Shown here: in pieces, positions 26,514 to 41,900 of the stretch
Layout: every line of letters begins with the position of its first letter
Numbering within the stretch: position 1 is the first letter of the stretch
Assembly (NCBI GenBank): GCA_963718665.1
Contig: OY970359.1
Span: 1,856,001 to 1,920,000, forward strand
DNA length: 64,000 nucleotides
Source: an uncultured Phycisphaerales bacterium
Lineage (GTDB): Bacteria; Planctomycetota; Phycisphaerae; Sedimentisphaerales; Anaerobacaceae
Reading direction: 5' to 3'
Made by a program: the position numbers and the translations under genes
Notes under the pieces: generated by a model
Seen by the model: only the letters and a program-made list of their open reading frames with translations
Told to the model about the DNA's origin: nothing
Database searches by the model: none

Positions 26514-27266
26514 ATGAATACCAAAGTGATTGTGGCAGGCGTTGTGCTGACATGTCTTGCGCTGGCTCAGGTTGTAATAGCGGCAGAAGGTGTAGTCGGT
26601 GAGTGGGAATTCAAAAGCCAGATGCCGGCAAGGACTATGACAGCAACGATGACGATTACGAAGAACGCCGAGGGCAAACTCGCGGGAACGTGGTCGGCGC
26701 AATTCGGCGAAAGTGCCCTGTCGGATATTACCTTCGAGGCAGGCAAGGTGAAGTTTGTCCAGACGAACAACTTCGGCGGCCAGGAGACGAAGACAACCTA
26801 CGAAGGCGCCGTCGAAGCCGGCAAAATCAAGGGTACAGGCAAAGGCCAGTTTGGCGAATTTACATTTGAGGGAACATTGCAGGGAAAAGCAAAAACCGGA
26901 GCAGATGCGATTGTCGGTGAGTGGCAGATGAGCGTAAATATGCCGGCAAGAGATAACGTGGAGAAGCTGACCATAACAAAGAACGCCGACGGAACACTGG
27001 CGGGCAAATGGGAAGGCCGAAGAGGAGAAAACAAAATTTCGGATATAAAGTTCGAAGGCGGAAAACTTACTTTTATTCGCACCAGTGATTTCGGAGGCCG
27101 CATTATGGAGTCAGAGTTTGAAGGGACCGTTGAGGGTGATGCGATAAAGGGCGTAGTCAAGAGCGACAGGGGCAACAGGGATGCTAATGCCACCCGCGTC
27201 GGCGCCGCCAAGCCGGAACCGGCCAAGGCTGAGCCGAACAAGCCGGCTGCGCCAAAACCAAAATAA
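26514..27266 (+). CDS. Secreted protein with two tandem ~100-aa beta-rich repeats
   Basis: Signal peptide, then VVGEWEF...TITKNAEGKLAGTW and IVGEWQM...TITKNADGTLAGKW repeats. Confidence 0.85.
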   Translation: MNTKVIVAGVVLTCLALAQVVIAAEGVVGEWEFKSQMPARTMTATMTITKNAEGKLAGTWSAQFGESALSDITFEAGKVKFVQTNNFGGQETKTTYEGAVEAGKIKGTGKGQFGEFTFEGTLQGKAKTGADAIVGEWQMSVNMPARDNVEKLTITKNADGTLAGKWEGRRGENKISDIKFEGGKLTFIRTSDFGGRIMESEFEGTVEGDAIKGVVKSDRGNRDANATRVGAAKPEPAKAEPNKPAAPKPK

Positions 27267-29319: not shown

Positions 29320-29353
29320 GCTAAAACGTTGGCTGATTGCGTTCCAGCCGGGC

Positions 29354-29538
29354 TAATTTTCGCCGGCAGGCAAATCTGTTATATAGTATAATTGCCGCTG
29401 GAATGGGTGAGCACGGACGCCAGCCTGTCATCATCTTCAGGCGGAAATTCATATACCCTGATTGTTAGACCTTCGATGCCAGCTTCGTTGCTATCGGTAA
29501 CTGTTCCGCTGATTGAACCGCAATAATCGGGTACCTGT
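29354..29538 (-). pseudogene. Fragment of a carboxypeptidase-regulatory-like (prealbumin-fold) domain gene
   Basis: Minus strand reads GSISGTVTDSNEAGIEGLTIRVY...THSSGNYTI*, then after a frameshift ITDLPAGEN*. Confidence 0.6.
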
Positions 29539-29602
29539 CAAATAAACCAGAAGGGACGTAACAGGTAAACTTTCGTTCCTGAGACGTTAAAGATATGACA
29601 AA

Positions 29603-29803
29603 ATGGGCGATACAGGACTCGAACACACCCCATTAGAGCAGTCAAAAACCCTGATTTCAGCAAGTGGCGGCGCAGAATCCGACGCGCGTAATGCGCCGAA
29701 CACCCTTCAAGACCCTGATTTGGCGTTGGTGGTCGAACAGTGGCCGAACCTGCCGTAGCATATCAAAGCAGCAATCAAAGCATTAGTTAAAATTCAATTT
29801 TAA
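29603..29803 (+). pseudogene. att-associated small ORF with internal stop
   Basis: MGDTGLEHTPLEQSK...GGAESDA...DPDLALVVEQWPNLP*HIKAAIKALVKIQF*. Followed by a truncated MTISEKQLEAKRT* at 29815 with an AAGGAG RBS. Confidence 0.55.
29604..29624 (-). repeat. att-like direct repeat of the tRNA-Val 3' end
   Basis: TGGGCGATACAGGACTCGAAC vs TGGGCGATACAGGGTTCGAAC at 39512-39532 (13 bp exact, 19/21 overall). Confidence 0.85.
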
Positions 29804-30298
29804 GGAGATACCCAATGACCATATCTGAAAAGCAGTTAGAAGCTAAACGCACTTGAACAAAGAATGGAGCGGGCACTATCGATTAGCGGGGAATTGCTGG
29901 GATTGTAGACCGGAAGCTGGTTGCCAGAGTAATTCTTATGCCGGGGCAGCACAGGGAATATTTTTGTTGCAATGTCGCCAGTTAAAAACGCGCGCACGCG
30001 CGCGATAAAGCGTCCGAAAACTCGTTTTTGAAGCGAAAACGCGTTTTCCGAGTCCATAAAAAAGGGGATTGTTTTCGGGTTTTTTGGGGGGAATTGTAAG
30101 CAATATCTTAGGTAGAATTATAAGTGCGGCAAGTAGTCATTGGAAATCCGATTTTGAATTCGGCTTTTGCGGAGCCGAATAGACACTGGAAGTTTGGCGA
30201 GCAGGGGATAACAAACGAAGTCGTGAAATCACAGCGGGCAAGTTCGTGCTAATCCGTAGCAAAAAAACCTTCGTATTTCTCTGTGATGTTTTAGTTGA

Positions 30299-30613
30299 TT
30301 AGTGGGATTGTTGATGTTCAGGCGATATATCTTCGTTGCTGACAAGAGTCAAGCCAACCGGATCGAATGGTTCCTGTGTCTGCCCGATATGGACTATGTT
30401 TTCTGCTTTAACGCTCACAACATTACCTTTTAGGCCTTTTTCATCTTCCCAGACGTAGTATTGGCCACAACTACTCTTGTCACTGGCCGGGATATAAAAA
30501 AGAGGGCAGCAGACCTTCGTGCTTGCATTACGGCCATTTTCACTGCGGTGTTTAATGAGAATCTTTTTCCTGCCTTTGATCGCCTGAATAAAAATATCAT
30601 GGTCACGGTGCAT
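30299..30613 (-). CDS. Small stand-alone WYL-like domain protein
   Basis: FIQAIKGRKKILIKH...TKVCCP...YYVW...NIVHIGQTQEPFDP follows the WYL layout (AI.....V...Y / R...P / I......T.E.F). Confidence 0.6.
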   Translation of the reverse strand: MHRDHDIFIQAIKGRKKILIKHRSENGRNASTKVCCPLFYIPASDKSSCGQYYVWEDEKGLKGNVVSVKAENIVHIGQTQEPFDPVGLTLVSNEDISPEHQQSH

Positions 30614-31016
30614 ATAATCTCCTGATTACTTTATTATTGTCGGAGGCGCAAATCCGAAATAGCTTATTGCGCACCCAGCAAATTAATCGGCTTGATGTGC
30701 CGGTTTCGCAGGCGACGAGATGCTCGGCTTTTTTATAAAGGTATAGTGCCCGACAAACACCATTTCTTTCTGTTTTGCTTATATTGCCGTCCATCCCGCA
30801 CGCATTGATAAAATAATCAGCAACCGCTTTGGCAACTTCCCCTGAAATCGTTTCGATGTATGCAAACTTGTGATTTTGTACCTTATGAAGGCGGGAAACT
30901 TCCGCGATGGGAGCGATGGGGTTATCAGCCAACCCTATGAACCAATCCTCATATTCGCCACCCCCTTGGCGGATATAGGTTTCCATCTGTTCAATGATGT
31001 ATTTCTGGTTACCCAC
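30603..31016 (-). CDS. Small protein with degenerate GIY-YIG-like fold
   Basis: GGEYEDWFIGLADNP...LHKV...AKAVADYF...GMDG...LYLYKK resembles the W-Y-V-G-I...P..RL..H family. GTG start; overlaps the next gene. Confidence 0.55.
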   Translation of the reverse strand: MGNQKYIIEQMETYIRQGGGEYEDWFIGLADNPIAPIAEVSRLHKVQNHKFAYIETISGEVAKAVADYFINACGMDGNISKTERNGVCRALYLYKKAEHLVACETGTSSRLICWVRNKLFRICASDNNKVIRRLYAP

Positions 31017-31107
31017 TGCCGTATTCGTCTATAGTTTTCTCTGAACGAGCCGCTTACCAGTCATTTGGCATATTAAGCCGCTGCTAATGCGGCCTGCCCT
31101 ACTGTTA

Positions 31108-31136
31108 AAGGCGACTGACTGCATAAAATGTTGACG
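31108..31136 (-). promoter_or_regulatory. ECF-type promoter copy A (GIY-YIG-like/mini-WYL operon)
   Basis: CGTCAACATTT-TATGCAGTCAGT-CGCCTT. Confidence 0.8.
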
Positions 31137-31197
31137 AAAAATTGCTTTTCAGGGGAAATTCATGCTGAATGGCTTCGCGCATTTGCGTCTTCGTGGT

Positions 31198-31236
31198 AAT
31201 AAAACTGGGGCAAAGAGGTTTTGTTCCCTTTGCCCC
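31198..31236 (-). terminator. Intrinsic terminator
   Basis: GGGGCAAAG-GGAACAAAACCT-CTTTGCCCC-AGTTTTATT on the minus strand. Confidence 0.7.
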
Positions 31237-31371
31237 ATTTCCAGCAGATCTGCTGGTGTGGAAGCTTCTGCTTAGAACACCCTTTTCACCATCCGAGGAC
31301 GCAGAAGGAAAGGAGAACCATCGTTCTACGCCCCGGTCGGTCTTGCGCAAGCAATCCCTAGCAAAAAACTA
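31198..31371 (-). ncRNA. Candidate ~175-nt small RNA
   Basis: Lies between promoter copy B and a terminator. Contains UUCUCCUUUCCUU and the palindrome CCAGCAGATCTGCTGG. No convincing ORF. Confidence 0.5.
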
Positions 31372-31377
31372 TTATTT

Positions 31378-31406
31378 AAGGCGTCTCAAGCCGCAAAATG
31401 TTGACG
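31378..31406 (-). promoter_or_regulatory. ECF-type promoter copy B (candidate sRNA)
   Basis: CGTCAACATTT-TGCGGCTTGAGA-CGCCTT. Confidence 0.8.
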
Positions 31407-31456
31407 GTTTTAATCCCAAAAACACTTGTTATTTTTACGAGATAACTGCGTCAGCC

Positions 31457-32455
31457 TTATTGTGAATCTACTATTCTCGATGCTATTTGAACAATCCTTT
31501 GTCTTAATGCCTTAGGCGCAAGGACCTCCACCTGGTCACCATAGCCTAAAATCCACCATGTTATCTCATTAAGCCCATCCACACGGAATTTCAGTACCAC
31601 CGAGCCATCATCCTCAAAAGAGGCGGTCTGTGTTTCATGCCATCGGACTTCAGCCACTTCCGCAGCGATTCGCGGGCAGAATCTCAATTCGACCTCGTAG
31701 ATTTGGCCTTCTCGCAATAATGACCAGGCATACCCAAAATACTCGCGAAGGTCGAATTTCTCATCTTCCACAAAATATCTGTCTAAAGGACTCAACTGTG
31801 TGATATGATTCAACTCGAAAGTATGCACCGCCTTGTGAAAACTCGATTCTCCGATTACATGCCAGGTGTGCGAGGAATATACCAGGTAATAAGGATTTAA
31901 GTCCGTTGTGACAGACCTTTGTTCGACAGGCAAATAGCAATGAATGGCCAAAACCCGCTTTACTTGAATAGCTTCCAGAACCTGCATAAATGTTTTATCC
32001 AACAGGTCCATACTGGCTTTAGGGGCAGGCCTAATTGAGATAAATCGAAACGATTCGTCGCAAAAATGTCTTACTTCCCGTCTCAGGCAATTCTCAATTT
32101 TAAGGGATAACAGCCGGGCAGGATAAGTAAAAGGAAGCTGTATATTGTGGCTCGCCTCGTGAAGCAGTAACAGCAAGCTGAATGCTTCCTCTTTGGACAG
32201 AGCAGGTGTTGGAAGAGGTGATTGAAGGTCTAAAGTATAACAGTGGCGCCTTGTGTTGAAACGACAAGGCAAACCCGCCCCTTGTAGCTCTTTCAGGTCT
32301 CTATATACAGTGCGACGGCTTTTTCCCAGTATCTCGGTTAATTCCGAAATTGCATAGCCCCTCCGGGATTGCAACGCTGTCAATAACTGCATTATTCTGC
32401 TGGTTCTGCTGTTTTTCATACGCCCTTTTGTTTTGATGCTCGGTTTATATGCCAT
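31457..32455 (-). CDS. HTH-WYL-WCX transcriptional regulator (PafC/DriD-like)
   Basis: ELTEILGKSRRTVYRDLKEL HTH; LNPYYLVYSSHTWHVIG...FELNHI WYL; EITWWILGYGDQVEVLAP..LR WCX. Confidence 0.93.
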   Translation of the reverse strand: MAYKPSIKTKGRMKNSRTSRIMQLLTALQSRRGYAISELTEILGKSRRTVYRDLKELQGAGLPCRFNTRRHCYTLDLQSPLPTPALSKEEAFSLLLLLHEASHNIQLPFTYPARLLSLKIENCLRREVRHFCDESFRFISIRPAPKASMDLLDKTFMQVLEAIQVKRVLAIHCYLPVEQRSVTTDLNPYYLVYSSHTWHVIGESSFHKAVHTFELNHITQLSPLDRYFVEDEKFDLREYFGYAWSLLREGQIYEVELRFCPRIAAEVAEVRWHETQTASFEDDGSVVLKFRVDGLNEITWWILGYGDQVEVLAPKALRQRIVQIASRIVDSQ

Positions 32456-32489
32456 ATTAGATGCTTGCTCATCGGTATCACCTTTTTAT

Positions 32490-32519
32490 AAGGCGTTTGG
32501 AAACAGCTAAAGGTTGATT
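32490..32519 (-). promoter_or_regulatory. ECF-type promoter copy D, variant (WYL regulator)
   Basis: AATCAACCTTT-N13-CGCCTT, about 35 bp upstream of the WYL start. Confidence 0.65.
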
Positions 32520-32548
32520 GTTTTTTGAGGCCATATCGCGTTTTTTGC

Positions 32549-32578
32549 TTGATTTTAGTAAACAAAATGTGCTATAAT
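32549..32578 (+). promoter_or_regulatory. Sigma70-type promoter of the dockerin-like gene
   Basis: TTGATT-N18-TATAAT with extended TGn. Confidence 0.55.
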
Positions 32579-32693
32579 GCCTGACGTTTAGACGGATAGA
32601 TGATGACAAGGGAGTAAGCAGACCGTTCACCTTCGGAGGGGAAGGTCGTATCTATTGATGCTGGGTTAAGGTTCTAAAAACTCATTAAAGGGA

Positions 32694-33398
32694 GTGTGGG
32701 CTGTGAAAAGATTGATTTTTTTCATACTGCTTCTGGTTGCAACAGTGCCAGCAGCGCACGCCGAAGTATTCACAAGAGTTTGTATGGCGGATGGCGATAC
32801 ACCGCTTGAGCTTGCCGACCCCTGTATTCCATTCGTTTACCGCCCAATTATGGTTGGAACGCACCTTACTATAGTTATTAGTTCTGATACGAGTGATTAC
32901 TGGGACGGCGGCGAACTGGCTCTTTGGGATGCAAACCAGAATTACGGTGTTTTGTCCGGAGGTTCACAATTACCGGCTGCCGGCGATATGGCCATAGTAT
33001 GGCCTGTTGTAGAAGCTGAGGAAGTGGACGGGCAGTGGCACGATGCCAATGGTTTTCAGTTTTCCGGGTCCCCGGACTCTACTGCCCTAATCGGCGACTG
33101 GTTTATAGTTGATTATAATGCCATTAGCGTGGGTACCTGTTCTGTTATCTTTTACAACTACGACGTGGATTGGAATAACCCGTTATACGCAATGTCTTTC
33201 ACTCATGTCGTAACACGCGATTTTAATGGTGATGGAATAGTCAACTTTGAGGATTTTGCGGTGCTTGGCTTGAATTGGCGAAGAACCGGCTGTTCTGAAC
33301 CGGATAATTGCTCGGGAACCGACCTTGATGCCGATGGGTATGTAGGTATCAGCGACTTAATGCAATTTGCCGAATACTGGCTGGAAAAGACCAGATAA
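32694..33398 (+). CDS. Secreted protein with C-terminal dockerin-like (paired EF-hand) module
   Basis: Signal peptide ending AHA. DFNGDGIVNFEDF...W and DLDADGYVGISDL...F...WL. Confidence 0.85.
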   Translation: MWAVKRLIFFILLLVATVPAAHAEVFTRVCMADGDTPLELADPCIPFVYRPIMVGTHLTIVISSDTSDYWDGGELALWDANQNYGVLSGGSQLPAAGDMAIVWPVVEAEEVDGQWHDANGFQFSGSPDSTALIGDWFIVDYNAISVGTCSVIFYNYDVDWNNPLYAMSFTHVVTRDFNGDGIVNFEDFAVLGLNWRRTGCSEPDNCSGTDLDADGYVGISDLMQFAEYWLEKTR

Positions 33399-33456
33399 TC
33401 AGCAACCTCGATTTAACCCTTGTGAGACCATTAAACCATAATAATTTTCTCTCAAT

Positions 33457-33473
33457 GGGTCAGGTTATGTCAC
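33457..33473. promoter_or_regulatory. Candidate WYL-regulator operator
   Basis: GGGTCAGGTTATGTCAC, 13/17 identical to GTGACAGGTTTTGACAC at 38799. Consensus GTGACA-N5-TGTCAC. Confidence 0.45.
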
Positions 33474-33488
33474 AGGAGGGCAGAAAAT

Positions 33489-33517
33489 CGTCAACATTTC
33501 CATTTTCACAACGCCTT
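33489..33517 (+). promoter_or_regulatory. ECF-type promoter copy C (C39 polyprotein)
   Basis: CGTCAACATTT-CCATTTTCACAA-CGCCTT. Confidence 0.8.
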
Positions 33518-33598
33518 CAATTTATGGGTGTTGCTGTAAACGCCCGGTGATGATTGGTTAAGGTGGTTTTTGTGATAACGCAGTAGATACGAGAGGAG

Positions 33599-35410
33599 AT
33601 GTGTTATGAACACACGAATATTTTAGGAATTATCGTCATAGTGCTGCTTGGCAGCGGAATCGCAGTTGCAGACAGACCCTTAGAGCGTGCGGAGCTTCTG
33701 CAAATCTTTGAACAATTAACCGCTCAACCCCGCAAGACCTGGATTGCTGCGGGCACAATTGAGGCGTCACATCAGGAATATGGTGCATCAGCCGTTACCG
33801 ACGAAAATGAGATTAACCGGCAAATCGCCGCGGAGATTCAGCGGTATCGGAATGAGTCAAACAAAAGAGAGCTTACCGAAGAGATGCAGAAAATGAAACT
33901 TGACGCGATGCCTTTTAACATTCGCCACAAGTTATCCAACGAATACACAATGAATTCTACGGAACAGGTAAAATTTGACAGTAAGCGGTTCTACTGGGAG
34001 ATTGACGTTGATTCAAGGTCTGATTCGGTAAAACCGGGCAGGGAGTTAGCCGGCAATTTCATGACTCAGCAATTCGACCTCGGCGGAAATCAAAAACGTA
34101 TATTTGCCTGGGATGGCGATAAGTACACCACGTATTTCCTGCCTGCCAACAATGCTATTGTCGATGCAGGGGGAAATAGCCCGCATTCTGTAAACGGGCC
34201 TTTAACCGCAGGGGTGGTGCCGTGGGGATACGGTCGCTACACATACAGTAATCTTTGTGCCGTTGAGTCATCGGGCATTGAATCGACCGCCAACGGTGAG
34301 ACACAAATAGTTTTGACGCTCAAAGAAGCCGACGGCAGCGAAAGTAACTTTACACTGGACTCCGCCAAAAACTATGCCTTAATAAATTGTTTAATAGGAA
34401 AACCGGATGGCTCGACAATTTCAAGACAGTATTCGGATTATGCATTTATCGCAGGCGGCTGGGTCCCTAAAACCATCCTGATTGAACGATTTGAAGCCGA
34501 CTCGAGTCGGCTGAAAGCCCGCGACTTGTGGAATCTGACTACTATAGACGATAATGTTCCAGAGGCAAACGCTTTTGATGTCCCTTATGGGTCGGATGCG
34601 CTGGTTGAGTATTATTCCGATGGGAGCACTAAGCCGGCAATGTACCGGCAATCAAACGCTGCTGATACAAACCAGCTCCTGACGAAACGTTTGGCGATAG
34701 TCAAATCAAATGGAGCGAATACGCGAAATTGCGCAACAATAGCGATAAGATACGTCGCGTCGGAATTCGGTGTTACAATTTCAGATAAAGATCTTGCATC
34801 CCTCGTTAATCAGACCAGTGGCACTACGAGTATGTACGATATGAAATACTTCCTGCAGGGATTTGGACTATATTGTCGAGCGGTTAAGACAAACATCGAT
34901 ACGCTCAAAAATCTAAACGGCTGCAAGGCAATTTTATATTTCCCAGGGAGGAACCATTACGTTGTCGTGGACCGCATTGATGACCAATATGTCTGGATAA
35001 CAGACCTTTCGTCGGCCAAATTCTATTACCGCACGGAAATCAGCTTTTTTGATATGGACTGGACAGACGGGGCGGCTTTACTTGTTTCGAAACAGCCGAT
35101 TCAGGGCGATTTTAATGAAATCGGCAGCGACCAGCAGGCAGGTATAACCGGCGGCGACGGTTACGCCTGCACATATCTAATTCAGCAATACAATGTCATC
35201 TTTTGCAGCTATGTTGCCGGTTTGTGTGGAGGTAATTACTATGTATATTACACACGCTATGGATGCCAAGCTGACGATAGCGGCGGCAGTTGCTCCAGCA
35301 CAAAAATGGTCAGATGTATGTCAACCCCCTGCATTAACGACCCTGATATCCTTGAGGCCTGCAATGTGACCGGCGTGTGGACATGTTATTATATGATGGC
35401 ATGTATGTAA
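33599..35410 (+). CDS. Secreted polyprotein: N-terminal beta-rich domain + C39-like peptidase + double-Gly leader + 10-Cys C-terminal peptide
   Basis: AGAGGAG RBS and signal peptide. RNCATIAI (Cys), GTTSMYDM, RNHYVVV (His), VWITD (Asp). FNEIGSDQQAGITGG followed by 84 aa with 10 Cys. Confidence 0.85.
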   Translation: MCYEHTNILGIIVIVLLGSGIAVADRPLERAELLQIFEQLTAQPRKTWIAAGTIEASHQEYGASAVTDENEINRQIAAEIQRYRNESNKRELTEEMQKMKLDAMPFNIRHKLSNEYTMNSTEQVKFDSKRFYWEIDVDSRSDSVKPGRELAGNFMTQQFDLGGNQKRIFAWDGDKYTTYFLPANNAIVDAGGNSPHSVNGPLTAGVVPWGYGRYTYSNLCAVESSGIESTANGETQIVLTLKEADGSESNFTLDSAKNYALINCLIGKPDGSTISRQYSDYAFIAGGWVPKTILIERFEADSSRLKARDLWNLTTIDDNVPEANAFDVPYGSDALVEYYSDGSTKPAMYRQSNAADTNQLLTKRLAIVKSNGANTRNCATIAIRYVASEFGVTISDKDLASLVNQTSGTTSMYDMKYFLQGFGLYCRAVKTNIDTLKNLNGCKAILYFPGRNHYVVVDRIDDQYVWITDLSSAKFYYRTEISFFDMDWTDGAALLVSKQPIQGDFNEIGSDQQAGITGGDGYACTYLIQQYNVIFCSYVAGLCGGNYYVYYTRYGCQADDSGGSCSSTKMVRCMSTPCINDPDILEACNVTGVWTCYYMMACM

Positions 35411-35529
35411 TTAGTTGTGACTTTATTGTGGTATTGCCACGTTAAGGTGGTACTGTAGTATACAGGTTATCATACATTGTTGCTCTGACGCACTTGACTT
35501 TCTTTGACGCAGGCCATACAGTGTTGGCT

Positions 35530-36354
35530 ATGCGGCGATTTGGGCTAGTCCTGATTGAATTGATTTTAGTAATAGGAATTATTGCTGTTCTCTTCGCGTT
35601 TTTGGTCCCTTCTCTTCAGAGGTCCCGGCTTCAGGCAAAAGCGGCTGTCTGTATGTCCAATATCAGACAGTTGAATACGGCCTTGTCAATGTACGTTACT
35701 GACACCGGCAAATTCCCTTACGGATTTTATGACCTGCCTCCACCTAATCCACCTATTCCGCCTCCGTCCGGTGGTTATGCTGGTTTATCTCAATATGACA
35801 GAAGGGGGTGGTGGTGGTTTAACTATCTTGAGGACATTTATAAGAAAAATATGGCTGGGAAGACCGTGCTTCAATGCCCTTCCAAACAGCTACAACAGAC
35901 AGCGCTAAAAAATGATATTCTTTGCGGAAACTACGGCGTTAATCTGTTGATTTGCAGAATGTCGAGTGGCGGCGGGGACCAGAATGAAATAGGTAATCCG
36001 ATAGGGATTTCGGAAGTTTTACGGCCGGGGCAGACATTGCTCATAGTCGATAGCGGCTACGCAATCATAAGCTGGCAGCACGCGGCTGATATTCTACCTC
36101 AGGGGATAACGCTTGGCACCATACCATTAGAAAATACTGCTTACGTTCCGGGCCTGTCGATAAATTGCCAAAGACAACTTTTGCCGGAACAGGAAACAGA
36201 TGCTTTATATGGGAGACATCCCCAGATGACGGTTAACGTTGGATTTGTTGATGGTCACGTAGCCCGCATCAAAGCGGAAGATTTGCTCGTCAAAAAAAAG
36301 CCCGACGGCACCTACGAAAATCGGTTTCCGCTATGGGCGCCATGTTCTCAATAG
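35530..36354 (+). CDS. Prepilin-type N-terminal / H-X9-DG (DUF1559-like) protein
   Basis: MRRFGLVLIELILVIGIIAVL..LVPSL, CMSNIRQL, CPS, RHPQMTVNVGFVDGHV. Confidence 0.9.
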   Translation: MRRFGLVLIELILVIGIIAVLFAFLVPSLQRSRLQAKAAVCMSNIRQLNTALSMYVTDTGKFPYGFYDLPPPNPPIPPPSGGYAGLSQYDRRGWWWFNYLEDIYKKNMAGKTVLQCPSKQLQQTALKNDILCGNYGVNLLICRMSSGGGDQNEIGNPIGISEVLRPGQTLLIVDSGYAIISWQHAADILPQGITLGTIPLENTAYVPGLSINCQRQLLPEQETDALYGRHPQMTVNVGFVDGHVARIKAEDLLVKKKPDGTYENRFPLWAPCSQ

Positions 36355-36361
36355 CTGCAGA

Positions 36362-38044
36362 TTAGAACGACATAGCTTCTGCTTTTGCAAGTATTTCTTT
36401 GTCGCCGGGGTATTCGATAATCATAATCGATTCGAGGACCGGCTGAAAATCAGATGCTGATTGTTTAAACCACTGAACTTTTTGTGGCAGATTAGTAGAG
36501 TTATCCATAAAAATACGCCAACTCTTTTGCGTCGTTGAACCATCATAGGCCTTCTCGGCCCAACTCAGTTCATATACTTTAGTATTGCTGGTTTTAACGG
36601 TAAGCTCGGAATTCGTTATCTCAGACCACCTTGCGTCCGCGGGGATGTCGGCGGATTTGTCGAATGGCATTATGCCTAATGAACCGTAAATCATATTCCT
36701 TAAAGCGACAAGATTATCACTGCTCAATGAAATCTGCTTAATTGCGCCGGTGCCCAAATCTTTATTCTTTTTCACTCGCTCGAAAGCGCTCCAAAGTGTA
36801 AATTCATTTTTTGTCTTAATAATGTAAATCTCAGAACTTCTGGATACCCAAACCTCCTGCACGGGTTTTTGATTATCGGCAACAAAGCTGGAAATATGGA
36901 TATTCTTAACCACATCGATGGCCCTGTAAATCTGTTCAATGCCAAGACCTTTTGCGGTATGAACGTTAATAAACAGGCCTACTGCCACCATTATCACCGC
37001 TGCAACCGGAATCGCCACTTTCAATAGCGGTCTAATACTCTTTGATGCAGATTTGAGTTTTACGGTTGGTTCAAACTTCTCAGAATGTGGTTGCTCCCGG
37101 CTGTCCAAATTGGCCATTTCCACCCTTACAGGGAAACCAGCGTATATGCTTTCTGTCTCAACCTTGGCAGTTGTGTCTATGTGGAAGACCGTCGCAACGC
37201 CGGATTCGGGCCTGTCGGCAATGTCATAAATCGTCTTGTGCAATTGCTGGATTTTGTCAAGGCACTCGGCGCAGCAGACAATGTGTGTGGTTAAAGATTT
37301 GCGGAATTTGGCATATTCGTCGCTTGTCGGGTCTATGCCGTATGGAATACAATAATCAAAGACATCAATTGCTCCTACGGATGAACATGGGAAGATACTC
37401 TTCTGTGTTTCATTATCGCTATGCAGTATTTTTGTTTGTTCCAGGATTATCTGACGGAATTTGTACAGTTCCTGCCGACATTTAGGACATAAAGATAAAT
37501 GCCTTAAAGTTTTTGCATCTGTTCGGCCAAAGGCCATCGCAACAACAGTTGGGATTGCCTCACGAGCTGTGGTGCAATCTGTTTCGTCGGTATCAAGTTC
37601 ATCTGCAAACAATTCACTGAGGGTTATAAGCTGTTTGTGGCTGAGGCCCAGATTTTGCAGCTTTTTGGAATCCTCTTTACATTGGTCGCAGTTATCGATA
37701 TGGGCCGTTATGGGCGTAGGCATCCTGATTTGCGTCGTCGGAGCCAAAAGATTCGGCAAAAAAGGCCTTACATCAGCGCAATTAACGTGTTTACCCACAA
37801 ACGAAAAGTGCAGCTTGAGTATGGCGGTAGTCGCCATCTGACGTTGTACCATGTGTGTTTGTGGATGCTCTTTGCATTCGGCCAGCATTGCTTCAAGCCG
37901 GCTCATTTGCTCACGACAGTAAAGACATCCCATGATGTGGTCGATGACTTCGCTGGGAACAGACCGTTCGGTCTCATCACGTAAAAAGTCAAAGTAGTGC
38001 CGCTCGGCTTCCGCACAAAATTTGTTATAATTGGGTGCTATCAT
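36362..38044 (-). CDS. Membrane-anchored anti-sigma factor with four tandem HxxxCxxC zinc-finger motifs and a periplasmic domain
   Basis: HIMGCLYC, HIDNCDQC, HLSLCPKC, HIVCCAEC; TM VAIPVAAVIMVAVGLFI; overlaps the ECF gene; GAGG RBS before ATG 38044. Confidence 0.85.
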   Translation of the reverse strand: MIAPNYNKFCAEAERHYFDFLRDETERSVPSEVIDHIMGCLYCREQMSRLEAMLAECKEHPQTHMVQRQMATTAILKLHFSFVGKHVNCADVRPFLPNLLAPTTQIRMPTPITAHIDNCDQCKEDSKKLQNLGLSHKQLITLSELFADELDTDETDCTTAREAIPTVVAMAFGRTDAKTLRHLSLCPKCRQELYKFRQIILEQTKILHSDNETQKSIFPCSSVGAIDVFDYCIPYGIDPTSDEYAKFRKSLTTHIVCCAECLDKIQQLHKTIYDIADRPESGVATVFHIDTTAKVETESIYAGFPVRVEMANLDSREQPHSEKFEPTVKLKSASKSIRPLLKVAIPVAAVIMVAVGLFINVHTAKGLGIEQIYRAIDVVKNIHISSFVADNQKPVQEVWVSRSSEIYIIKTKNEFTLWSAFERVKKNKDLGTGAIKQISLSSDNLVALRNMIYGSLGIMPFDKSADIPADARWSEITNSELTVKTSNTKVYELSWAEKAYDGSTTQKSWRIFMDNSTNLPQKVQWFKQSASDFQPVLESIMIIEYPGDKEILAKAEAMSF

Positions 38045-38624
38045 CTTCAACCTCTTGTTCAATTGCCAGAAATTTTTTAACCTTCCTAAGCCCGGTGGAA
38101 ATATATCTTACTACAGAACGATCATCAATACTCATTCTGTCAGCCGCTTCTTTTATGGATAAATCATCACAGTATCTTGATGCAATAGCTTTAAATTCAT
38201 TCTTCGTTACCCGATTTCTGATTAATTCTATCATCCGATCTGCCAGCTCTTTCTCTATTAAGGCGTCTTCGGGCAGCCGATTGTTGACGGTTATTTTGTT
38301 ATAATTGGCACATCTGTGTGTCATTTCCTGGTATTTTTTGAGGTGTCGGATATGGTCTGTTGTATCATTGATTATCGCCCTGTAGATATAACCTTTGATG
38401 TCCTGCACTTCCGCCGGGACAGGTCTTGATGCAAGCGAAAGGAAGAAATTATGGAACAAATCTTCGGCCATGCTTTCATCCTTAATTTTGTGGCGAATAA
38501 CAGCGCGGATAAAATCGCCGTGCTCAAAAAAGATTACCGTGGCACGTTGAACGTCGCCTGATACGTCACACCCCTGTTCTATGGTGTTCTTTTCGCTCAC
38601 CTGCGACTCACTCCCAAAAGGCAA
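38025..38624 (-). CDS. ECF sigma factor (start uncertain)
   Basis: AEDLFHNFFLSL, YIYRAIINDTTDHIR (region 2); LSIKEAADRMSIDDRSVVRYISTGLRKVK (region 4). Confidence 0.9.
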   Translation of the reverse strand: MPFGSESQVSEKNTIEQGCDVSGDVQRATVIFFEHGDFIRAVIRHKIKDESMAEDLFHNFFLSLASRPVPAEVQDIKGYIYRAIINDTTDHIRHLKKYQEMTHRCANYNKITVNNRLPEDALIEKELADRMIELIRNRVTKNEFKAIASRYCDDLSIKEAADRMSIDDRSVVRYISTGLRKVKKFLAIEQEVEDDSTQL

Positions 38625-38798
38625 AGAATCCGAATATAAACAGCCATATTACCAAATATGCCTTTTCTTATCAAGGGTAAGGTTTTGGCTAAATCATGCT
38701 GAATGGATTGATATTTGGGTGTGGTGATTAGTTCAATACTGAGTGTAGCTCTTAATATGCCTTGCTGGCTTTAAAAAAATCTCCTTTTTCCTTAGCCA

Positions 38799-38815
38799 GT
38801 GACAGGTTTTGACAC
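38799..38815. promoter_or_regulatory. Candidate WYL-regulator operator upstream of the ECF gene
   Basis: GTGACAGGTTTTGACAC, a near-palindrome. Confidence 0.45.
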
Positions 38816-39511
38816 TCCAGGTGTAAATTTCCTAAGATTTTCGTGCTTTTAGGCGATGTAGAGAATAGGCCTCCTTAGATTTTTGCTCGCTGGGCTTGGA
38901 ATGGGTGGGCTGGGAAAGAGCTTTGTGGGGATGAAGCTTTTCCCGGCCCACTTGGCCTCGTCCTTGCTGTGCCGTGAGTGGTCGTGATGCTCAAACCTGT
39001 AAAATTCGGATAGATAGTCCGATGGCATAAAATCATAAGCCGTTGAAAACATAGAACTTACAAACTCGCAGCCCCTCTGCTTACAAATAATTTAAGGACG
39101 ACAAGGCGGCTTAGATAGGCATAAATTGCTTCTCTTTTTCATTTTCTTAAACTGCTTGCCATTAGGGATGTGTGGATTACTATCACTTTGGTATCAAAAT
39201 CGAAAATACACCTGGAATCGTAAAAGAACTTTTCATAGCATCACAACCTGAGCAGATGTCTGGTTTTTATTACTGCTTGATGATTTGTTTTCGGTCGGTT
39301 TGCCTTTCGGTTGCTACGATGTTCACTTTCGGGGACATATCTATTGTCAACGCGCAATTTGGGTGGGCTACGGGGATTTCTACCAGCAATAATGAAGGCC
39401 CAGAGAATGATGTGCAAAATGCGGAATCGTGTTGCACGGCTTCGCACACAGGCGGAGAATCTGCGAAATTCAACACAGAACAACACATTACGACACAATG
39501 CGAAGGGGTAG

Positions 39512-39585
39512 TGGGCGATACAGGGTTCGAACCTGTGACCTCACGGGTGTGATCCGTGCGCTCTAACCAGCTGAGCTAATCGCCC
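39512..39585 (-). tRNA. tRNA-Val(CAC)
   Basis: GGGCGAT/ATCGCCC acceptor, GCTC/GAGC D stem, CACGG-ATCACAC-CCGTG anticodon arm, ACAGG-TTCGAAC-CCTGT T arm. CCA not encoded. Confidence 0.96.
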
Positions 39586-39650: not shown

Positions 39651-40064
39651 TTACAGACCTTCGTTTGCCAGCAGATTAACGCGTCCAAGCTTGACGCCCT
39701 TAATGCTTATGAGTTTTTCGCCCATTTTGTTTATCTCGCCGACCTTGCCGCGCAGGACTATTACCTCAAGACAATTGTGATGGTCCAGATGAACGTGCAG
39801 AGAAGAAATAGTTTTCAGGACATGCGAATGCTGAAGCTCCGTCAGCCGTTCCATAATCGCGGCTGCGTGATGGTCATACACCAGGACAACCGCGGCGACC
39901 GCCTCGGCCTTGTCATTTCGCAGCCGATTATCGCTTAACTGCTGCCTTATTAAATCGCGTATTGCTTCCGACCGGCTCTGATAACCCTTCTCGGCAATCA
40001 ACTTGTCGAATGCTCCGAGCAATTCTTTCTCAAGCGACACACCAACTCGCTCTATACCCGCCAT
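39651..40064 (-). CDS. nikR: Nickel-responsive regulator NikR
   Basis: RVGVSL, SRSEAIRDLIR, YDHH, HVHLDHHNCLEV. Confidence 0.95.
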   Translation of the reverse strand: MAGIERVGVSLEKELLGAFDKLIAEKGYQSRSEAIRDLIRQQLSDNRLRNDKAEAVAAVVLVYDHHAAAIMERLTELQHSHVLKTISSLHVHLDHHNCLEVIVLRGKVGEINKMGEKLISIKGVKLGRVNLLANEGL

Positions 40065-40100
40065 TACATTTCTCCTGCAATACCCGTTGAGGTTCGCAAA

Positions 40101-41900
40101 CTAATCCCTGCTTGTTACATAAACTGCCTGCTCGGCGAAAAGATTCGGCACAAACTTCACCTGGCTGCCCCGCGTTTCGCTCAGCGCTATTTTCTTTTCA
40201 ACCTTTACGCCGAGCTTGTTGCAAAATCTGTCAAAATCCTTAATAGTGAAGAAGTGCACGTTCGGCGAATTATACCATTCGAAAGGCAGGTTGCCCGTTA
40301 CCGGCGCCTTGCCCAGAATCGCCATTTGTAATCTGCACCGCCAGTGCGCGAAATTCGGGAAGCTGACAATCACCTTTTTGCCGACCCGCAGCATTTCGAG
40401 AAGCGCCTTCTCGGGATTTTTCAGCGTCTGCACCGTCTGCGATAATATCACATAATCGAAGCTCTTGTCGGCATAATAATCAAGCCCCTGCTCGACATCC
40501 TGCTGGATAACAGGTAATCCCCGGCAGACACAATCCAGCACAAATTCCTGGCCAAGCTCGACGCCTTCGCCTTTTATGTGTTTGTCCCGGACAAGATTTG
40601 CAAGCAGTTCCCCGCTGCCACAGCCAACGTCAAGCACGCTGCTTCCCGGCTCTATGAGGGATTCAATGAGGTCATAATCGACACGCGCCCTTTGCGGCTG
40701 GTCAAAAACATCCAGCCCTTGTCCTCGCTTCGCGATACAGGAACATGGTTTGCGATTCTGCGGGTCATAGGTCGCTTTCAGAAAACAGCAGATAAGTTGT
40801 CCAAGTGTGTCAATCTCCAGCAAAAACGCGTCGTGACCATAAGGCGAGGCGATATCGCAGTAGCTGACATCCTTGCGATTCGCGGCAATCGCTTCGGCTA
40901 TCGCCCTCGATTGCGCAGGCGTGAAAAGCCAGTCGCTCGACAAGCTCACGACCAGAAATCGGCTTTTCGCGTTAGCGAACGCCTGTTGCAGTGAGCCGTA
41001 GTCCTTTGTAAGGTCGAAATAATCCGACGCCTTGGTAATGTAAAGGTAACTGTTGGCGTCGAAACGCTCGACGAAGCTCTGCCCCTGATAATCAAGATAC
41101 GTCTCGACGGCGAACTCCGAGGCAAAATCATATTTATAGTCGTCGGCAGTCCGAAGTTTTCTGCCGAATTTATCACGCATACTCTCTTCGGACAAATACG
41201 TAATATGCCCTATCATCCTGGCGATGCCAAGCCCCTGTGCGGGCTGGCCGGTTTCGTGGTATTGCCCGTCGGCAAAATTATGGTCCGCCAGTATCGCGTT
41301 TCGCCCCACCGCGTCAAACGCTATCGATTGTGCGCTTAAATGGCTTGTCGTCGCTATCGGTATCGCTGCTTTGACAAAATCCGGATACGAAATCGTCCAC
41401 TGCAAAACCTGCATCCCGCCTATCGAGCCGCCAATCACGGACAATAATTTTTTTACGCCGAGCTTATCGAGCAGGAGCTTTTGAACCTTCACCATATCTG
41501 TTATTGTGATAATCGGGAAATCAAGCCCGTACGGTTTGCCGGTTTTGGGGTTAATCGAAGATGGCCCAGTTGTTCCGGAACACCCGCCTAAAAAATTCGA
41601 GCAAATCACAAAATATTTATTGGTATCGATACCCTTTCCCGGCCCGACCGTATTATCCCACCAGCCGGGTTTGCGGTCATCAGGACTGTTTAATCCCGCA
41701 ACGTGGGCGTTGCCGCTGAGGGCATGGCAAACCAGGACAACATTATCCCCCGTCGCGTCGGGCTTGCCGTATGTTTCGTATGCCACGTCAATAGGCCCAA
41801 GCGTCTTGCCGCACGCGAGTTCCAGCGGATTATTCTCTTCGACAACCCGTATTATCTGCGTTTTAACTATACCAACCGAGTTTTCCTTCGAGTTTGCCAT
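40101..41900 (-). CDS. metX: Homoserine O-acetyltransferase fused to MetW methyltransferase
   Basis: CHALSG, GGSIGG, GHDAFL. C-terminal LDVGCGSG, ILSQT.Q, VSFPNFAHW (MetW). Confidence 0.95.
   Translation of the reverse strand: MANSKENSVGIVKTQIIRVVEENNPLELACGKTLGPIDVAYETYGKPDATGDNVVLVCHALSGNAHVAGLNSPDDRKPGWWDNTVGPGKGIDTNKYFVICSNFLGGCSGTTGPSSINPKTGKPYGLDFPIITITDMVKVQKLLLDKLGVKKLLSVIGGSIGGMQVLQWTISYPDFVKAAIPIATTSHLSAQSIAFDAVGRNAILADHNFADGQYHETGQPAQGLGIARMIGHITYLSEESMRDKFGRKLRTADDYKYDFASEFAVETYLDYQGQSFVERFDANSYLYITKASDYFDLTKDYGSLQQAFANAKSRFLVVSLSSDWLFTPAQSRAIAEAIAANRKDVSYCDIASPYGHDAFLLEIDTLGQLICCFLKATYDPQNRKPCSCIAKRGQGLDVFDQPQRARVDYDLIESLIEPGSSVLDVGCGSGELLANLVRDKHIKGEGVELGQEFVLDCVCRGLPVIQQDVEQGLDYYADKSFDYVILSQTVQTLKNPEKALLEMLRVGKKVIVSFPNFAHWRCRLQMAILGKAPVTGNLPFEWYNSPNVHFFTIKDFDRFCNKLGVKVEKKIALSETRGSQVKFVPNLFAEQAVYVTSRD

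Follow-up and report, generated by a model that had tools for sequence, protein, structure and literature searches.

The 64,000-nucleotide stretch analysed here, from an uncultured Phycisphaerales bacterium (contig OY970359.1; hereafter the window), carries at its sole tRNA gene, tRNA-Val(CAC), a 9.9-kb island with a conserved gene cassette, in which a polyprotein with a C39 peptidase domain is encoded beside a DUF1559-type pilin-like protein, an anti-sigma factor candidate and an extracytoplasmic function (ECF) sigma factor. We propose that this is an integrase-deleted tRNA-Val island whose ECF-controlled, self-processing export module frees a disulfide-rich miniprotein, a reading that in our judgement stands at about an even balance. 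Directly observed are the island and the deletion in it, the order of the genes and of the protein domains, an intact catalytic triad, a leader consensus and a shared upstream motif. The island itself is an ordinary decayed tRNA island; the conserved module is its unusual part. In known systems the C39 peptidase and the double-glycine leader belong to different molecules, which an ATP-binding cassette (ABC) transporter brings together. If the proposal is true, a single chain that unites enzyme, leader and product after a signal peptide would open a new maturation route for secreted peptides and would provide the poorly understood class of periplasmic C39 peptidases with a built-in substrate. 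No published description of the fusion or of the cassette was found in the literature searched, a coverage that mostly leaves out subscription journals.

The C39 polyprotein and its cysteine-rich core

The polyprotein and its parts are encoded as follows (aa, amino acids):

33599..35410, plus strand: C39 polyprotein, with signal peptide, LolA-like domain, C39 peptidase, double-glycine leader and Cys-rich core
33668..34633, plus strand: LolA/LolB-superfamily domain, residues about 24-345 (Foldseek E 1e-7 to LolA3)
34712..35089, plus strand: C39 peptidase domain with Cys378-His453-Asp469 (Pfam E 2e-17, above the curated cut-off)
35111..35155, plus strand: double-glycine leader-like linker, F(-15) I(-12) Q(-7) I(-4) GG
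35156..35410, plus strand: Cys-rich core, the predicted released product, 84 aa with 8 conserved cysteines (10 here), all-beta and anionic

The likely true start of the gene is ATG 33607. The contigs of three of the four runs carry an additional T behind position 33620; the shifted start in the window is a one-base assembly error, and its interpretation as a real lesion was ruled out on these grounds. The N-termini of related C39 proteins resemble signal peptides and end at a conserved A24-D25, which suggests an extracytoplasmic (periplasmic) location. In the AlphaFold model of the protein, built from 107 sequences (pLDDT 90.8, pTM 0.88), fold alignment of the LolA-like domain gave Z 11-12.6 with an rmsd of 5.1-5.4 over about 200 aligned residues, and the best fold match of the peptidase domain is the LahT double-glycine protease 6mpz (Z 13.6, rmsd 2.6, 127 aligned). 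The catalytic triad is kept almost throughout 78 full-length cluster representatives (C 78/78, H 78/78, D 75/78). The linker behind it has a consensus (n=78) with hydrophobic residues at -12 in 76 and at -4 in 72 sequences, G at -2 in 74 and G, A or S at -1 in 72. According to the available text of PMC10885120, the motif recognised by ComA and LahT consists of hydrophobic residues at -12, -7 and -4, then GG, GA or GS, and the linker reads as this motif with a weaker -7 position.

The eight cysteines of the core are kept in 76-78 of the 78 representatives, and its median net charge is -5 (positive in 4/79). Modelled alone, the extended, Tyr-rich core forms an all-beta domain (pLDDT 93.6). Fold searches with it did not exceed Z 3.8, and Foldseek E values stayed at 0.68 or higher, from which novelty of the fold does not follow; two cystine-knot chains score Z 3.7 (rmsd 4.5, 60 aligned) and 3.0, the same level as unrelated rows, and atlas searches with the core and with the N-domain of the dockerin protein of the cassette stayed at chance level (0.83 and 0.78, respectively). 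In a comparison of 11 close relatives no part of the protein is less conserved than the core (74% identity vs 85-87%; omega 0.39 vs 0.17). It is under purifying selection, and no positive selection was found (omega 0.39). The secreted Cys-rich product that a first-pass annotation of this DNA had announced is supported. Profile matches in 148 clusters at 50% identity define a family of about that many sequence clusters of 8-Cys beta miniproteins without clear structural match.

The core forms the C-terminal end in 145 of the 149 sequences examined. It follows a LolA-like and a C39 domain in 90 sequences and a C39 domain without the N-domain in 23, while 25 short core sequences without signal are mostly fragments. 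Six sequences (P0231, P0240, P0248, P0251, P0257 and P0271) consist of signal peptide, leader and core without a peptidase, and in three (P0207, P0241 and P0256) the signal peptide leads straight into the core; the hydrophobic signal-like stretch of P0256 stops immediately before GYACT, one residue from the predicted cut. The signal peptides of these stand-alone forms were called by a crude hydropathy rule and by eye. Two metagenome scans for their genomic context gave nothing and one fused form, respectively. Cores directly behind signal peptides support release of the core as a mature product.

Several findings weigh against this. The glutamine that precedes the catalytic Cys by six residues in PCAT1 is not conserved in this C39 family, position -7 of the leader is hydrophobic in just 47/78 sequences (Q here), and 6/78 lack G, A or S at -1. 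The stand-alone core forms are singletons or pairs. Excised C39 domains are not invariably active, as far as the accessible part of PMC10885120 reports. Moreover, the whole chain models as a single body (pTM 0.88) and one LolB alignment extends into the core, so that the core may stay bound to the rest of the chain; the model evidence speaks to domain folds and not to placement of the Gly-Gly pair in the active site. The missing oxyanion glutamine, this confident single-body model and the presence of a LolA-like fold next to an anti-sigma factor would also suit a periplasmic protease that does not release its own tail, in which linker and Cys-rich tail block or aim the active site and the LolA-like domain regulates the anti-sigma factor. 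Such regulation would resemble that by RseB/MucB. We consider a protease of this kind quite unlikely, given that cores also follow signal peptides directly with no peptidase in the chain, and that 72-74 of 78 sequences retain the small residues at -2/-1 that a cut site needs. Self-release of the core is the interpretation that we prefer.

Some further arrangements of the core were seen. In P0238, P0264 and P0197 it stands behind other, shorter secreted N-domains, without C39 or a clear leader. In P0195 an anti-sigma factor of the cassette family (zinc repeats, transmembrane stretch and half of the outer domain) runs straight into leader and core; P0195 is a singleton, encoded on a contig of 2.6 kb, and could be chimeric; if real, it would tie the core to the anti-sigma factor. 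Prediction of a complex between the anti-sigma outer domain and the core scored 0.01, which is evidence neither way.

The conserved cassette and its island

The partners of the C39 gene in the cassette are:

32694..33398, plus strand: secreted protein of 234 aa, variable N-domain plus dockerin-like domain
35494..36354, plus strand: DUF1559-type pilin-like protein, likely start ATG 35530
36362..38062, minus strand: anti-sigma factor candidate that spans the membrane, with four HxxxCxxC repeats and an outer domain of 200 aa
38025..38624, minus strand: ECF sigma factor with sigma2 and sigma4 (TIGR02937 above cut-off)

The C39 and DUF1559 genes, usually behind the dockerin gene, face the anti-sigma and ECF genes, which are adjacent and overlap. 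A genome scan gave 178 loci, and this order was followed in the best 80 of them, each gene being scored only where the flank was long enough: the DUF1559 gene is in place in 67/70, the anti-sigma gene in 57/58, the ECF gene in 54/55 and the upstream dockerin gene in 59/71. At 23 loci of relatives the corresponding numbers are 21, 20, 19 and 23, all misses being contig ends, and 19 of 20 further, more distant loci have DUF1559 and anti-sigma genes in place. Genes that the first-pass annotation had grouped together keep company elsewhere, in the same order.

The C39 protein is present in 24/41 genomes. A leader-plus-core profile has matches in 39/401 genomes of the class, all of one order and with one copy each, and across the phylum in 7 credible cases of 401 genomes, again in the same order; the sole match outside it (G637, E 8e-4) was dropped, as it carries four stops. 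Homologues of the central protein are labelled Sedimentisphaerales or Phycisphaerae by their sources. Among the genomes searched the cassette is confined to Sedimentisphaerales, and it is single-copy.

As to the partners, the dockerin protein is 390-500 aa long in distant families and has an extra domain there. The dockerin-like and DUF1559 labels of the first-pass annotation are right in kind, with the window copies just below the cut-offs: the dockerin match was found in 18/25 homologues at E<=0.1, and the DUF1559 protein has a GspG-like N-terminus (E 2e-8) and a DUF1559 match (E 1e-4), both below cut-off. DUF1559 genes are stress-responsive in Rhodopirellula, going by the accessible portion of PMC2754498. 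The anti-sigma factor has one transmembrane stretch, at about 342-370, and four HxxxCxxC motifs, as had been read from the letters, where 18 homologues have two to four; for its outer domain there was no family match and nothing in a PDB sequence search. Its ECF partner may already be covered by the group descriptions that accompany PMC7826278. Among close relatives the synonymous divergence (dS) is, compared with the remainder of the respective gene, about twofold higher in the anti-sigma outer domain (36365-36967; 0.62 vs 0.32) and in the N-domain of the dockerin protein (32760-33215; 0.78 vs 0.49), and the former appears mosaic in the alignment, a hint of recombination in these outward-facing parts.

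Could the core be a building block rather than a free product? Its tight linkage to a pilin-like and a dockerin gene and its extended, all-beta, Tyr-rich nature would fit a surface subunit, structural or adhesive, in partnership with the DUF1559 and dockerin proteins, the LolA-like domain being its chaperone and the C39 cut triggering assembly, as proposed for FapD in the Fap system (PMC5557850, in the part available). We find this unlikely in view of the lack of amyloid-like repeats in the core and of a conserved outer-membrane channel in the flanks, the single core per 600-residue precursor, which makes a costly route to a polymer, and the true absence of the dockerin gene in about 11 loci.

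A second alternative keeps the processing and makes the core a bacteriocin-like or polymorphic toxin against kin, with one of the neighbours as immunity gene. Bacteriocin systems typically have double-glycine leaders and C39 domains (PMC10885120), and papain-like autoprocessing domains have been proposed to release C-terminal toxins or modules in polymorphic toxin systems (PMC3482391), both as far as the text at hand goes; no other part of the protein varies as much as the core, and the cassette combines patchy presence with repeated carriage on tRNA islands. Yet the core is anionic, its 8-Cys scaffold is constant and not a set of swapped toxin domains, its omega is below 1, and it is single-copy in 39/39 positive genomes. 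The flanks of the cassette are variable, with 375 flanking open reading frames (ORFs) in 295 families, the largest of them in 8 loci, and there are no orphan cores and no small conserved immunity gene among them. Models of defence systems (PADLOC) gave only generic WYL/HTH matches in the cargo. A toxin is in our view rather unlikely.

The island is bounded, and its edges are marked, by the following:

39511..39585, minus strand: tRNA-Val(CAC), with the right junction in its 3' end (39512-39532)
29604..29624: left junction, an attL-type copy of the tRNA-Val 3' end, 19/21 identical to 39512-39532
29603..29794, plus strand: decayed short ORF starting in the att copy, edge marker of the element family (stop 29756-29758)
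39165..39366, plus strand: remnant of a pentapeptide-repeat gene of the parent element, 90.6% to L055 3487-3292 (PF00805 in the intact gene)
39355..39552, plus strand: 3'-terminal codons of a tyrosine integrase gene that extends into the tRNA 3' end, 81% to L055 2057-1809

On its own the 21-nucleotide pair does not rise above many chance repeats in the window; it coincides with the junction of an empty site, though. In G019 and G006, from a set of 40 relatives, ahcY lies about 200 bases from tRNA-Val, and their DNA aligns with the window up to 29624 and picks up again at 39512, so that the tRNA-Val repeat is the exact junction. The integrative origin that the first-pass annotation derived from the repeat is supported, and the GC profile that it asked for gives 45.2% in the island vs 49.2% for the 2.61-Mb genome, with 4.0% of same-length windows equally low. 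Homologues of the left-edge ORF begin at tRNA 3' copies in L019, L020, L023, L028 and L043, and about 90 nucleotides off in L022.

That annotation had seen no integrase, and indeed a profile scan found no PF00589 match inside the island, which is without an intact integrase; the ORF at the right edge is nevertheless what remains of one. At the same tRNA G016 has an element with an intact 426-aa PF00589 tyrosine integrase that runs into the tRNA 3' end and is preceded by a pentapeptide-repeat gene. The window at 39355-39600 matches the end of this integrase and the tRNA at 81%. What the window retains, the last ~60 codons, is fused to the pentapeptide-gene remnant, with ~1.2 kb between the two gone and a short shared stretch at the deletion junction. 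From this remnant and the deletion relative to the G016 element it follows that the integrase was lost from the island, rather than overlooked. The G016 element (L055 1857-13862) is an intact one of the parent type, with integrase, pentapeptide-repeat gene, HTH_17 and a DnaB-N/AAA_25 helicase-like gene, then genes that by eye resemble type I restriction-modification subunits.

The tRNA-Val site is occupied by the same cargo in G017 and G007 and by a different one in G020 (L043 2500-16110), namely secreted proteins, several with PEP-CTERM-like tails (by eye) or dockerin-like domains, beside a truncated and a second, intact integrase. In L020 (G007) and L025 (G017) the left att copy was lost through a deletion that joins the region upstream of ahcY to the island interior (window equivalent 29328-30026); G007 carries one more att copy and edge ORF on the right-hand side of the cassette, and L025 9178-14195 shows frameshifts in the C39, DUF1559, anti-sigma and ECF genes, which are either decay or long-read errors. 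About 130 bases between ahcY and the att copy (29413-29546) are absent from the empty sites in G019 and G006 and appear to be a separate small insertion or deletion outside the island. Joints of an excised circle or empty site were not present in the contigs of four runs of one study, and contigs drop rare forms.

Copies of tRNA 3' ends bracket the cassette at Val in the window, Lys in L023, Tyr in L028 and Arg in L101, and a Cys copy adjoins it in L022. A tRNA gene lies within 2.6 kb of the cassette in 9/30 sequence clusters vs 8.6% for a random stretch of this genome, kin among these clusters not being independent. Near the cassette a tblastn search with two integrase queries met nothing but remnants; a 194-aa integrase fragment lies 6 kb away in L098. 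G018 is 91% identical to this genome in ahcY and 53% in the C39 gene, G011 90% and 85%, a contrast that fits lateral replacement. The island resembles tRNA-targeting tyrosine-integrase islands (genomic islets) in the 3' tRNA duplication, the integrase reading into the tRNA, the lower GC content and the empty sites in relatives; unlike in typical tRNA islands the integrase is deleted, and the cargo is fixed at Val, Lys, Tyr, Arg and Cys tRNA copies across genomes. To speak of a domesticated module, as the first-pass annotation did, is too local for a cassette that is order-wide and fixed at several tRNAs.

Beside the island, at 39651-41900, a NikR-type regulator and a 599-aa fusion of an alpha/beta-hydrolase, which we take to be MetX-like, with a MetW methyltransferase are kept next to tRNA-Val across the genus. 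At 26514-27266 the window encodes a secreted-looking protein of 250 aa with an internal repeat and no Pfam match.

The upstream motif and the accessory genes

Putative ECF promoters were located at:

33486..33519, plus strand: C39 gene, motif in 49/56 loci
31376..31409, minus strand: RNA, score 26.7, best in the genome
31106..31139, minus strand: 137-aa gene, score 24.5, second best in the genome, kept in 8/8 close relatives
32489..32522, minus strand: WYL gene, score 23.6
38259..38292, minus strand: weaker copy within the ECF gene, upstream of the anti-sigma start, score 19.5

The motif upstream of the C39 gene is bipartite, TCAAC-N16/17-CGC with the consensus TCAACATTT-N12-CGCyTA, and lies at a near-fixed distance, mostly 95-136 bases ahead of the start. 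It precedes the gene in 49 of 56 non-redundant loci (47/56 in a leave-one-out test, 0.04 in shuffles). AAC and CG boxes spaced by 16-17 bases are the usual shape of an ECF promoter. Four of the five best sites genome-wide fall in the island (31409, 31139, 33486 and 32522), and three of these four precede genes outside the training set of the matrix. At the RNA promoter TCAACAT and ACG are invariant in 16/16 aligned copies, and the WYL-gene motif scores 16-24 in 8/8 close relatives and 7-12 in two distant ones; overall the motif is found in 8/25 WYL upstream regions. It is not a WYL site, because it is kept in G002, G018 and G021 (completeness 89-95%), which are without a WYL-gene match.

The regulatory part of our proposal also has to reckon with contrary findings. 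On the sense strand the motif occurs in 0/47 dockerin, 0/50 ECF and 0/59 DUF1559 upstream regions, so it is missing directly upstream of the ECF gene, and ECFs usually autoregulate (PMC7826278, in the part available). Genome-wide there are 33 matches vs 11-15 in shuffles, many weak sites being due to chance. The matrix scores a distant family poorly, in which dockerin and C39 genes are butted and a variant, TCAA-N17-ACGA, lies upstream of the dockerin gene in 8/17. Finally, L160 has the C39 gene without the other genes of the cassette.

Further positions of note in G000 are 461,393, 614,125, 2,227,498 and 121,708. Strong sites precede a secreted protein at 461,604 and a two-copy gene at 614,258 and 2,227,631, candidate distant targets. 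A paralogue of the 137-aa gene at G000 883,809 has a near-match upstream (score 12.3).

The accessory genes in the window are:

31457..32455, minus strand: HTH-WYL-WCX regulator, 332 aa (Pfam HTH_11, WYL and WCX above cut-off)
31195..31372, minus strand: structured non-coding RNA candidate of about 170 nucleotides with a terminator-like hairpin end, its ends inferred
30603..31016, minus strand: 137-aa protein, overlapping the 104-aa gene, with the paralogue at G000 883,809
30299..30613, minus strand: 104-aa protein without family match and with weak WYL-domain likeness

All cargo ORFs listed by the first-pass annotation are present, and its HTH-WYL, C39 and ECF labels pass curated cut-offs. 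Its small RNA candidate gains from a fold z of -4.5 and from 15 further copies (after a duplicate locus had been dropped): 8 occupy the same position, 7 point away from the ECF gene, and all have the motif ahead and a hairpin and T-rich run at the end. The proposed structure has 94.6% of cells paired and 7/35 pairs changed on both sides, the sequences being close kin from which the structure itself was derived. It belongs to no Rfam family, and an RNA-model search of 77 other sources found no copy; a small ORF within it was rejected, as its start codon is not conserved. The GIY-YIG-like label given to the 137-aa protein did not survive, with no Pfam, NCBIfam, PADLOC or PDB sequence match, GIY-YIG included; a remote likeness in fold is possible. 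The mini-WYL label of the 104-aa protein did not hold either: the protein has no Pfam match and compares weakly with WYL domains (hhalign E 0.009, probability 4.6%); its gene is near the cassette in 8/23 loci.

The first-pass annotation had coupled the WYL gene to the ECF unit, which the shared motif supports, and had seen in it the second sensor of a two-input circuit, in which WYL would sense a nucleic acid and the anti-sigma factor the envelope, both being required for the peptide. The gene adjoins the cassette in 21/56 complete loci and in three positions: on the dockerin side in 12, on the ECF side in 8 and within the operon in 1. This repeated linkage suggests functional coupling. But it is missing from 35/56 loci and adjoins in 7/30 clusters, not in the other 23, and WYL and cassette are distributed independently across the 41 genomes (both in 14, cassette only in 10, WYL only in 11, neither in 6). 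Thus 10 of the 24 cassette genomes lack a full WYL match, although one that is counted among them, G032, retains a truncated WYL beside the cassette. We place the WYL gene downstream of the ECF, since its upstream motif is that of the C39 gene. It is likely a target or output and not a second input, coupled yet dispensable, and a circuit that requires both signals seems very improbable.

Proposed mechanism and known systems

How would the module work? By analogy with what is established for this class of pair, the anti-sigma factor would hold the ECF until an envelope cue comes. The ECF would then read TCAAC-N16/17-CGC and switch on the C39-DUF1559 operon, the WYL gene, the small RNA and the 137/104-aa pair, a step that we consider quite probable. 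After Sec export the C39 domain would cut behind Gly519, in cis or between copies, while the LolA-like domain holds or carries the core; we think this likely too, if a little less so. A Sec-exported C39 protein can be active in the periplasm, as the available text on FapD describes, needing its cysteine and acting on a substrate that is left unresolved there (PMC5557850). The freed 84-residue core would act at or beyond the cell surface. That it is a signalling ligand, possibly feeding back on the anti-sigma factor, is a tentative suggestion, and for its role we put a signal slightly ahead of surface structure and toxin. In its fullest form the idea is one of transporter-free, single-chain double-glycine maturation: a Sec-exported protein with its own C39 domain, leader and carrier would free a miniprotein of unrecognised fold that serves as a cell-to-cell signal of Sedimentisphaerales, sensed by a multi-zinc anti-sigma factor in an ECF loop that also drives the small RNA and WYL. 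Taken whole, this is doubtful. The module offers a testable ECF regulon of promoter, operon and small RNA in a largely uncultured order, and a possible use as a self-releasing expression tag for disulfide-rich proteins.

Among known systems, ECF pairs with zinc (HxxxCxxC) transmembrane anti-sigma factors share the adjacent, overlapping genes, the membrane-spanning partner and the bipartite promoter-like motif at neighbouring genes, but differ from the present pair, which has two to four tandem zinc motifs and an outer domain without family or PDB match. The WYL gene shares HTH, WYL and WCX with the PafC/DriD-like regulators. FapD of the Pseudomonas Fap amyloid is, like the C39 protein to judge from its N-terminus, Sec-exported and transporter-free; it is a stand-alone enzyme, whereas in the cassette the enzyme runs on into a canonical leader and core. 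The NCBIfam FapD match reaches E 2e-5 and 24 bits vs a cut-off of 330, and the cassette loci have no fapABCEF neighbours, FapF-like channel or amyloid repeats. With the polymorphic toxins (Tox-PL1, Tox-PLC39) the module shares secretion as a polyprotein in which an internal thiol peptidase precedes the C-terminal part; different from them, it has a fixed C-terminal scaffold in all aligned members, no RHS or filament repeats, no immunity array and a double-glycine cut signal.

The peptidase-containing ABC transporters (PCAT) and AMS proteins (ComA-ComC, LahT, PCAT1) share the C39 fold, the Cys-His-Asp triad and a leader with hydrophobic residues at -12, -7 and -4 and GG, GA or GS. This genome has no full-size PCAT; its other two C39 ORFs, at G000 622,398 and 2,265,607, encode transporter-free proteins of just 285-297 aa with hydrophobic segments. 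In the module the ABC transporter is replaced by a signal peptide and a LolA-like domain, processing is predicted to be extracytoplasmic, the oxyanion glutamine of PCAT1 is not conserved, and peptidase, leader and core form one chain in all 39 positive genomes (open frames of 550-629 aa), with no separate precursor gene. On the features tested the module thus falls outside PCAT, Fap and the polymorphic toxins alike, and it works most like PCAT.

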